From positions 11,964 through 75,963 of the forward strand of contig JAUSAW010000004.1 of assembly GCA_030652335.1 (NCBI GenBank): DNA of 64,000 nucleotides, written 5' to 3'. Shown here one piece after another: positions 19,159 to 20,331 of the stretch. Within the stretch, counting starts at the first letter, position 1. Every line of letters starts with the position of its first letter. The position numbers and the translations under genes are program-made. The DNA comes from Gammaproteobacteria bacterium (GTDB taxonomy: Bacteria > Pseudomonadota > Gammaproteobacteria > Francisellales > CACEW01). The notes beneath the pieces were generated by a model. The model searched no databases. It worked only from the letters and a program-made list of their open reading frames with translations, and was not told where the DNA came from.

Positions 19159-19647
19159 ATGGGATATAAATTTTTAACGAGTGAACTTCGGCTTATTGCC
19201 CAAGTTTATGTTAGCATCGAGGGCTTCATTGCAGCTAAAGCAATAGGCGATTATGTAGCTTGGCAAGAATATCAAACCATAATGGGCACTTTTAGGAATA
19301 ATAAAGCGGTTTTTCAACGATATTTTGATTCCGACGGTGATCAACGGCGGTGTTTCAATGAGTTTATTACTGTCATGCTCTCCTCTACAAAAAATAATGA
19401 CCAAAAAATGGAAATAAAAGCATTTAAGGAATGCATGGCTAGTCGTGAAATGACTGCGTTTAAAAGCATGTCCCCCAGCGCTTCTAGCACACCCACCGAT
19501 GAGTCAAGCAGTGAAAGCCGCTACACCAGTTCGACGGTTGAAACAGTCACCCCTTCAGGCTGCTGCGCATGCCTTTGTTTTTGGCGCACACCAGCTTCCC
19601 CACGAGACTACCAAGCATGGCATAAGGATTTATCAAGTAACCTCTAA
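19159..19647 (+). CDS. Hypothetical protein with C-terminal poly-Cys motif (GCCACLCFW)
   Basis: The ATG is preceded by GAGGG. I recognise no family. It has a Ser/Thr-rich tail, and the Cys cluster ends 22 aa from the C-terminus. Confidence 0.6.
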   Translation: MGYKFLTSELRLIAQVYVSIEGFIAAKAIGDYVAWQEYQTIMGTFRNNKAVFQRYFDSDGDQRRCFNEFITVMLSSTKNNDQKMEIKAFKECMASREMTAFKSMSPSASSTPTDESSSESRYTSSTVETVTPSGCCACLCFWRTPASPRDYQAWHKDLSSNL

Positions 19648-19740
19648 ACGAATTTCTATAGTCATGGCTGCCTTCGCAAGGTATCATAAAGCGTTTTTAA
19701 AACGGAATTTGATTCCAAAACATGCACAAGGAGGGCTACC

Positions 19741-20331
19741 ATGCCAGCTAGCAATGAGTCTATTATTCGCACTTTTTTTGATAATGTTGACTCGTATAAT
19801 AAGGCCCCAATAAAAAAACTAACAACGGGGATAACTCTATACACTACAATAAAAGCCTCTTCAATTGAGATCCAAAAATTATTCCATATCGCTATACTTG
19901 AAAATGAGAGAAAAAGAGCCGCTTATGAGCAATTTATTAACAATCTAAACGCTCATGACCCTAAAGATACCTATACCTATGAAACGATGACGCTGGAAGT
20001 ACATGTTCCAGAATTCAAACGGCCCGATCTCTGGGGGTCAGCATTACGCTTATACCCTTCCGATAGCCTGTCCGTAGAAACAGCTGAAAGTGAAGAAAAA
20101 AATGAAGATCTTTCAGTAAAAACTCGTGCCAACACTGAGTTTTTTGCACTTGATACCGCCTCAACCCCTCTACTCTCAGCACATTCGCCCGAATCACGCG
20201 CCTCACAAACTGCTGCTAAAACTACAGAAGTCGTCAGTGCTGGTAGCTGGTGTTGCTGTTTCTCTTTCATCAAGCGAGTTAAATCTGCATCAAGCACGAC
20301 TGAAACAGTAAGCTTTGATGGCCTATCGTAA
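19741..20331 (+). CDS. Hypothetical protein with C-terminal poly-Cys motif (SWCCCFSF)
   Basis: The ATG is preceded by AGGAGGG. Its tail (TTEVVSAGSWCCCFSF) resembles the neighbour's (STVETVTPSGCCACLCFW). Confidence 0.65.
   Translation: MPASNESIIRTFFDNVDSYNKAPIKKLTTGITLYTTIKASSIEIQKLFHIAILENERKRAAYEQFINNLNAHDPKDTYTYETMTLEVHVPEFKRPDLWGSALRLYPSDSLSVETAESEEKNEDLSVKTRANTEFFALDTASTPLLSAHSPESRASQTAAKTTEVVSAGSWCCCFSFIKRVKSASSTTETVSFDGLS

Follow-up and report, generated by a model that had tools for sequence, protein, structure and literature searches.

A cysteine patch shortly before the C-terminus of four proteins encoded within 64 kb of groundwater metagenome DNA: candidate Dot/Icm effectors

The DNA analyzed here is a stretch of 64,000 nucleotides (the window) from contig JAUSAW010000004.1 of assembly GCA_030652335.1, deposited as a gammaproteobacterium. 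Four soluble proteins encoded in this window carry a compact patch of two to four cysteines shortly before the C-terminus. Two of them are small and are encoded by adjacent genes, referred to as gene 1 and gene 2. The other two are large, consist of 550 and 521 amino acid residues (aa), and are encoded at 39.9–43.3 kb. A cysteine pair is found in this position far more often than the cysteine content of the proteins predicts. In our judgment, the chances are about even that the four proteins are candidate Dot/Icm effectors, in which a disordered Ser/Thr linker, a Cys-aromatic-basic patch, and a translocation signal would follow one another, and in which the patch would be S-palmitoylated by DHHC acyltransferases of the host. 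For all four proteins, translocation and lipidation are steps that we infer.

The tails were read from the translations. The tail of gene 1 is ...SSTVETVTPSG-CCACLCFW-RTPASPRDYQAWHKDLSSNL and that of gene 2 is ...KTTEVVSAGS-WCCCFSF-IKRVKSASSTTETVSFDGLS, with 20 residues following the patch in both. The Cys codons are located at 19561–19578 (C-C-A-C-L-C) in gene 1 and at 20251–20259 (C-C-C) in gene 2, exactly where a sequence-only reading of this DNA had placed them, and its count of the residues past the last Cys (22 in gene 1 and 23 in gene 2) was also correct. The 550-aa protein ends in ...SATCCFCWFGPKKPAQAAIAASPAPK, with the tail NSAT-CCFCWF-GPKKPAQAAIAASPAPK, and the 521-aa protein ends in ...KRGGCCSKPATEEESAKMPLLS, with the tail KRGG-CC-SKPATEEESAKMPLLS, which includes a block of Glu residues (TEEESAKMPLLS). 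The last Cys of these two proteins is followed by 19 and 16 residues, respectively. The order within the tails is a flexible linker in which Ser, Thr, Ala, and Pro are abundant, followed by small residues, two to four Cys, F or W (in three of the four), and K or R within 1–5 residues (in all four). The patches directly precede the last ~20 residues, as the final stretch is 16–20 residues long. The sequence-only reading had stated that the tails of the small pair match those of the two large proteins in kind and placement, and both the translations and the enrichment described below agree with this. Two of its more specific statements have to be relaxed. A shared element of the type [ST]-x(1-3)-CC-x(0-1)-C-[FW] fits three of the four tails, but the 521-aa protein has CC alone, with neither a third Cys nor an aromatic residue. 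The distance to the C-terminus, described as fixed, is similar among the four proteins but ranges from 16 to 23 residues after the last Cys.

To determine the frequency of the motif, all six frames of the window were screened for open reading frames (ORFs) of 80 aa or more. The CC dipeptide is present in just six of these ORFs, namely the four tail genes, one antisense ORF, and the gene for CrcB, where it is part of a membrane helix. In the enrichment test, the cysteines of each protein were redistributed at random within that protein in 5000 trials. A CC located 10–35 residues from the C-terminus was observed in five proteins (the four and CrcB), compared to 0.27 expected, and none of the 5000 trials reached four. 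The objection that the motif is no more frequent than Cys content predicts thus did not hold for the ORFs of the window. CrcB is a fluoride channel encoded at 34309–34686 on the minus strand. Its CC lies 15 residues from the C-terminus, within a transmembrane helix, and CrcB is a false positive for simple motif scans. In ~720 ORFs at 47 related loci, CC was found 39 times, with 39 expected from cysteine content. The four DNA segments have nothing in common, no DNA element behind the motif was detected in the window, and the patches use TGC as well as TGT for Cys. Because both codons are used and no DNA element is shared, the resemblance is at the level of protein and not of DNA.

The features of the locus and of the two large proteins are listed in the table.

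Table. Features of the gene 1–gene 2 locus and the two large tail proteins (positions in the window)
Feature	Position	Strand	Description and basis
Gene 1	19159..19647	+	162-aa soluble orphan protein, candidate Dot/Icm effector
Gene 2	19741..20331	+	196-aa soluble orphan protein, candidate Dot/Icm effector, probable diverged paralogue of gene 1
Cys-aromatic patch of gene 1, CCACLCFW	19561..19584	+	Proposed S-acylation site; translation and enrichment test
Cys-aromatic patch of gene 2, WCCCFSF	20248..20268	+	Proposed S-acylation site; translation and enrichment test
Ser/Thr-rich linker of gene 1 (MSPSASSTPTDESSSESRYTSSTVETVTPSG)	19468..19560	+	Probably disordered; translation; modelled without secondary structure, pLDDT <50
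Ser/Thr/Ala/Glu-rich linker of gene 2	20038..20247	+	Probably disordered; translation; pLDDT <50, residues 82–175
Last 20 residues of gene 1 (RTPASPRDYQAWHKDLSSNL)	19585..19644	+	Proposed translocation signal; C-terminal score 3
Last 20 residues of gene 2 (IKRVKSASSTTETVSFDGLS)	20269..20328	+	Proposed translocation signal; C-terminal score 5
Relic of gene 1 codons 46–58 in the gene 1–gene 2 spacer	19679..19717	+	Decayed, frame-shifted; DNA alignment
TTAAT-N6-TTAA direct repeat	19099..19113	+	Possible PmrA-type response-regulator site, lead only; 46 nt 5' of gene 1 start
EF-hand-like loop, gene 1 residues 54–75 (RYFDSDGDQRRCFNEFITVMLS)	19318..19383	+	Lead only; phmmer vs PDB
550-aa orphan protein	39941..41593	-	CCFCWF (39995–40012), 17 residues from C-terminus
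521-aa protein	41697..43262	-	No detectable relatives; CC (41748–41753), 16 residues from C-terminus

All four proteins have a negative grand average of hydropathy, with a maximum in the Kyte-Doolittle 19-residue window of ≤1.39 (threshold 1.4), and neither an N-terminal signal peptide nor a membrane helix was found in any of them. Single-sequence AlphaFold gave models that are weak throughout, with a predicted local distance difference test score (pLDDT) of 41 for gene 1 and 34 for gene 2. Around and before the patches of both proteins the pLDDT is <50, within models that are of low confidence as a whole. The overall weak model of gene 1 (pLDDT 41) suggests that its N-terminal part is helical.

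The large protein databases were searched with three of the four proteins, those of gene 1 and gene 2 and the 550-aa protein. Among 5.8 billion protein clusters, these three proteins matched only themselves. A full HMMER (phmmer) scan of 1.84 billion representatives with gene 2 gave nothing credible and a single non-self match, P0004, a 2304-aa NACHT/leucine-rich-repeat protein (E=2.8e-8). P0004 contains ~17 near-identical 57-residue repeats, nine of which each weakly match residues 82–126 of gene 2; the pattern LE-x-H-x-P-x2-K-x2-DLWG-[ST] is common to P0004 and residues 85–100 of gene 2. We judged this match to be spurious, a chance match inflated by the repeats. Searches of metagenome contigs revealed no relatives of the 521-aa protein and nothing close to the neighboring TrhO. 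No family match was obtained for any of the four proteins in Pfam, NCBIfam, PADLOC, or PHROGs. The PDB yielded nothing credible for the proteins searched, except for a weak EF-hand lead in gene 1, and for the 550-aa protein it yielded no match at all. The self-only matches of gene 1, gene 2, and the 550-aa protein mean a narrow distribution without housekeeping homologues, as is characteristic of Dot/Icm effectors. Narrow taxonomic distribution is the best single predictor of effectors (PMC2701608).

Genes 1 and 2 are real, lineage-restricted genes. Each starts with ATG, preceded by GAGGG 7 nt upstream in gene 1 and by AGGAGG 6 nt upstream in gene 2, and a public protein set also carries both calls with the same lengths (162 and 196 aa). 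For both genes, the annotated frame has the highest codon log-odds among the six frames. The values themselves are near zero and thus weak, compared to 0.1–0.24 in conserved genes; effector genes are typically orphans with weak codon adaptation (PMC2701608). The region 18000–21500 is identical, with zero differences, in an independent assembly of the source run (~58x depth). The ORFs and the family matches of the neighboring genes confirm that the two plus-strand genes interrupt a long minus-strand run between trhO and the pantothenate cluster, as the sequence-only reading had described. Upstream of the pair, on the opposite strand, lies a UPF0176/rhodanese (TrhO-type) gene. The other flank consists of a DUF6622 membrane protein gene, a Glu/Leu-dehydrogenase-like gene, and then coaX-panD-panC-panB-(DUF2520)-coaBC. 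A promoter and terminator scan of the locus gave results at chance level, and tRNA and Rfam scans gave no match there.

The spacer between the two genes provides a clue to their origin. Positions 19679–19717 align with 19294–19333 in the interior of gene 1, which encode RNNKAVFQRYFDS, with 31 of 39 nt matching, one gap, and a local score of 36. Shuffled controls scored 20.5 ± 2.1 (maximum 31), and 180 length-matched natural windows scored 21.0 ± 2.5 (maximum 31). Because of this relic of gene 1 in the spacer, the gene pair looks like an old tandem duplication, and genes 1 and 2 are probably old, diverged tandem duplicates. Their proteins give a Smith-Waterman z of 3.3, and the sole detectable alignment between them is weak and includes the tails. 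This argues for retention of the tail in the gene 1–gene 2 pair while the rest diverged. As genes 1 and 2 are probably tandem copies, the four tails are not fully independent. The proposal that the tail is selected independently of the rest of each protein is supported in part, as far as retention through divergence is concerned, but separate acquisition by each gene is not supported, given the spacer relic and the non-independent tails. No significant similarity was found between the 550-aa and 521-aa proteins.

If the tails act as proposed, the type IVB system would export the protein by means of its last ~20 residues. Once in the host cytosol, the tail would have a weak, transient affinity for host membranes, owing to its aromatic and basic residues. 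The cysteines would thereby reach membrane-bound host DHHC acyltransferases, which would attach palmitate, and the palmitate would lock the otherwise soluble protein onto the host membrane. The location of the patch 16–23 residues from the end would follow from this proposal, because the last ~20 residues must stay intact as a secretion signal. The tails present accessible cysteines beside hydrophobic and basic residues on a soluble protein, as seen in host-palmitoylated effectors; the pLDDT part of this observation comes from weak models. DHHC enzymes, which modify cysteines near the membrane, are conserved across the eukaryotes (PMC8059564). A short targeting or lipidation cassette, as the sequence-only reading had envisaged, is compatible with Cys clusters in disordered, Ser/Thr-rich tails of soluble orphan proteins and with the precedent of LpdA described below, although the tails on which it is based are not fully independent.

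Precedents for such lipidation are known from Legionella. In L. pneumophila, LpdA carries palmitate on a C-terminal cysteine, and the host also S-palmitoylates GobX (PMC13081727, PMC4951486, PMC5780409). LpdA is the nearest known case, followed by the Legionella CaaX-box effectors; anchors of the SNAP-25 type are also close in design. LpdA resembles the proteins as proposed here in that it is soluble, is exported by a type IVB system, comes from a member of the same bacterial order, and is anchored to the membrane by host S-palmitoylation near the C-terminus (PMC13081727, PMC4951486, PMC5780409). In contrast to genes 1 and 2, which have no recognizable domain, LpdA is a phospholipase D, and there is no sequence relation between them. 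Lipidation has been demonstrated in LpdA, whereas we infer it for genes 1 and 2. Furthermore, the patch described here recurs on four unrelated proteins within 64 kb.

The acceptor cysteine of GobX is central and is not located in a C-terminal tail. Host S-palmitoylation sets the place of the effector in the host cell for GobX of Legionella as well as for SspH2 and SseI of Salmonella (PMC4951486, PMC5780409). The acceptor cysteines of SspH2 and SseI are N-terminal and not in a C-terminal tail (PMC4951486), and both are type III substrates with other secretion signals. The Legionella CaaX-box effectors (AnkB and the Pel proteins) are Dot/Icm effectors that the host lipidates on a C-terminal Cys, which anchors them to the vacuole or to another membrane (PMC13081727, PMC4951486). 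However, prenylation needs a Cys at -4, whereas the cysteines here are at -17 to -28; because of this position, the chemistry would be reversible thioester acylation and not attachment of a thioether prenyl group. In SNAP-25, SNAP-23, cysteine-string protein, and the Ras hypervariable region, a flexible run of cysteines with hydrophobic or basic neighbors is acylated and tethers a soluble protein. The substrates of DHHC enzymes include SNAP25, SNAP23, HRas, and cysteine-string protein (PMC8059564). The tails of genes 1 and 2 resemble these cysteine-cluster anchors in design, but the anchors are eukaryotic and have no sequence homology to genes 1 and 2, and the resemblance would amount to mimicry.

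The Dot/Icm signal is located in the C-terminal ~20 residues (PMC2701608; PMC3814349). It favors acidic residues at -8 to -18 but not at -1 to -6; positions -3 to -11 are biased toward Ser/Thr, and the last positions (-1 to -3) toward hydrophobic residues or Pro (PMC2701608). A crude C-terminal score was built from the positional rules of PMC2701608, and 67 ORFs of the window were ranked by it. Gene 2 was tied for third place among the 67 (5% of background ORFs scored as high), and gene 1 was tied for seventh (22% as high). The 521-aa protein shares the top value of this crude score. The remaining top ranks are mostly occupied by further orphan ORFs of the window.

A possible regulatory site was noted upstream of gene 1. 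Many effector genes, though not all, have a PmrA or CpxR element upstream. The sequence TTAAT-N6-TTAA, with a spacing that we take to be the PmrA-site arrangement of Legionella and Coxiella effector genes, has its single exact match in the window at 19099–19113. Upstream of the other three genes, the coding strand contains no match to it, even when one mismatch is allowed.

The window DNA was found in one groundwater metagenome run. Its CoaX is 66–74% identical to that of metagenome-assembled genomes (MAGs) labelled uncultured Coxiellaceae, Candidatus Aquirickettsiella, or Rickettsiella, with the most distant matches at 50–62%. These names belong to the Legionellales (Coxiellaceae). Judged by this marker, the source is an uncultured groundwater member of the Coxiellaceae (Legionellales). 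No relative closer than the CoaX-matching MAGs was found in the collections searched. At 47 Coxiellaceae loci around coaX, only coaX and panC are common with the window, in four cases together with the dehydrogenase-like gene, and none of these loci has a homologue of gene 1 or gene 2. To our knowledge, all known Legionellales live within eukaryotic cells. A type IVB system is present in almost all of them, and its effectors are highly variable (PMC8896642). From its lineage, i.e., from the CoaX relatives together with the literature, the source organism would be expected to possess a Dot/Icm system.

Several observations weigh against host palmitoylation of injected effectors. No dot/icm genes are present in the 64 kb window, and the lineage is assigned by one marker at 66–74% identity. 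Comparable tails were absent from the ~720 ORFs at the 47 related loci, which are housekeeping neighborhoods around coaX. The 550-aa protein has an average C-terminal score and that of gene 1 is modest, on a score that is crude. With one mismatch allowed, TTAAT-N6-TTAA occurs 18 times in the window, compared to 21.5 expected, i.e., without enrichment. Because S-acylation has no strict consensus sequence, the fit of the tails to it is weak evidence.

Other roles for the patches were considered. They could be sites for a metal, for an iron-sulfur or copper cluster, or for redox sensing, in proteins that stay in the bacterial cytoplasm. We regard this as unlikely, although CCACLC, with four Cys in six residues, would be able to ligate Cu(I), Zn, or an Fe-S cluster, and none of the four proteins has an export signal. 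A known cytoplasmic metal-binding family, which would have spoken against the lipidation proposal, was looked for in Pfam, NCBIfam, and the PDB, and no match was found. Histidines and paired CxxC motifs are absent, and the two Cys that the 521-aa protein has would bind a metal poorly. They are located in seemingly disordered tails beside aromatic and basic residues, which is usual for a membrane interface and not for a metal center. A metal site would also leave the position 16–23 residues from the end unexplained, along with the aromatic and basic neighbors. The patch always abuts the presumed secretion signal, which would fit a role on the bacterial side, either in lineage-specific recognition by the secretion machinery or a chaperone, or in holding the protein at the inner membrane before export. 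The type IVB coupling complex of the Legionellales indeed has lineage-specific adaptors (PMC8896642). However, published descriptions of the Dot/Icm signal include neither Cys nor aromatic residues at -17 to -25 (PMC2701608, PMC3814349), and the patch is missing from other orphan ORFs of the window that have good scores at the C-terminus. We consider the chance of such a bacterial-side role to be small.

It is very unlikely that the patches have no function and that the Cys runs are low-complexity noise in chance or decaying reading frames. In its favor, housekeeping genes have far higher codon scores than genes 1 and 2, no homologues were found anywhere searched, and the duplication relic shows that the locus is in flux. 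Against it, the frames span 162 and 196 codons, each has a Shine-Dalgarno sequence, and each is the best of six; the motif recurs at a similar position in four proteins, a number not reached in any of the 5000 shuffles; and, as described above, weak codon adaptation and orphan status are also what is typical of effector genes. The least probable explanation, to which we give hardly any weight, is that the tails belong to a known type, i.e., a CaaX/Rab-type prenylation box, a C-terminal sorting signal of the PEP-CTERM or GlyGly-CTERM type, or a lanthipeptide-like core peptide. The tails are rich in Cys, Ser, and Thr, and CC and CxC are the motifs that are geranylgeranylated in Rab proteins. Prenylation of the CaaX/Rab type was rejected, as it needs a Cys in the last 4–5 residues and here 16–23 residues follow the last Cys. 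Sorting of the PEP-CTERM, GlyGly-CTERM, or MYXO-CTERM type was likewise rejected, given the lack of a signal peptide, of a hydrophobic helix after the motif, and of any NCBIfam sorting-domain match. A lanthipeptide-like precursor of the ribosomally synthesized and post-translationally modified peptide class was rejected because the neighboring genes encode TrhO-like, DUF6622, dehydrogenase-like, and CoaX proteins and not peptide-modifying enzymes. In addition, proteins of 521 and 550 aa are far too large for precursor peptides.

Taken as candidate effectors with a host-acylated tail, the four proteins are a sound observation with a plausible interpretation that has precedent, and they add new candidates in an unsampled lineage. 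Injected proteins of Legionella are already known to be lipidated by the host, among other ways by palmitoylation close to the C-terminus, and for this reason the candidates extend a known principle to a new lineage and to new proteins. The effectors of uncultured Legionellales are almost impossible to recognize because they have no homologues. A position-specific tail motif would give a practical search rule for membrane-anchored effectors and would hint at the host machinery used, the DHHC acyltransferases of protists. A broader possibility, which we consider doubtful, is that a large share of the effectors (at least four, possibly five, of ~10 orphans in 64 kb) carry a portable C-terminal address label composed of the linker, the Cys-aromatic patch, and the type IVB signal. 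If so, the label would have been spread or kept through duplication while the rest of each protein diverged, and the lineage would rely on host S-acylation far more than is known for Legionella or Coxiella. The motif and its position would then provide a sequence-only handle for effectors in uncultured Legionellales.

A possible fifth tail is located next to the 521-aa protein. The gene at 43446–44399 (+), divergently transcribed from that of the 521-aa protein, encodes a 317-aa protein with no confident family match. It contains a long hydrophobic hairpin of two helices (~residues 223–285), like vacuole-membrane effectors, and two Cys after the hairpin, the last of which is in PFFGAC, 17 residues from the C-terminus. 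This protein may carry a tail of the same kind.

The EF-hand lead in gene 1 comes from a phmmer search against PDB calmodulins (E=0.0036). This value is the sum of three repeats on the same segment of the query, each of which is insignificant alone. EF-hands usually occur in pairs. In the 12-residue loop of each, the ligands are provided by positions 1, 3, 5, and 12, position 6 is Gly, and position 8 is hydrophobic. In the loop DSDGDQRRCFNE, these ligand positions are occupied by D, D, D, and E, respectively, but Q at position 6 and R at position 8 are atypical, and gene 1 has a single such loop. The EF-hand models of Pfam did not match gene 1 up to E=10.

Further ORFs without a Pfam match are found at 50657–51205 (-), 49695–50555 (-), 62392–62937 (+), and 5819–6505 (-). 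Those at 50657–51205, 62392–62937, and 5819–6505 are among the highest-ranking ORFs by the crude Dot/Icm C-terminal score, and the one at 49695–50555 contains an acidic (Ser-Asp)n run. All four may be further effector candidates, lacking the cysteine patch. The 171-aa ORF at 39168–39683 (+) is probably not a gene, as its codon usage scores better on the opposite strand; a 120-aa ORF at 39477–39839 (-) may be the real gene there. At the edge of the window, a phage-type integrase fragment at 10–351 (+), comprising only the C-terminal catalytic part, overlaps tRNA-Leu (296–384), next to which lies tRNA-Cys (388–461, minus strand). This fragment is probably a remnant of an integrated element.

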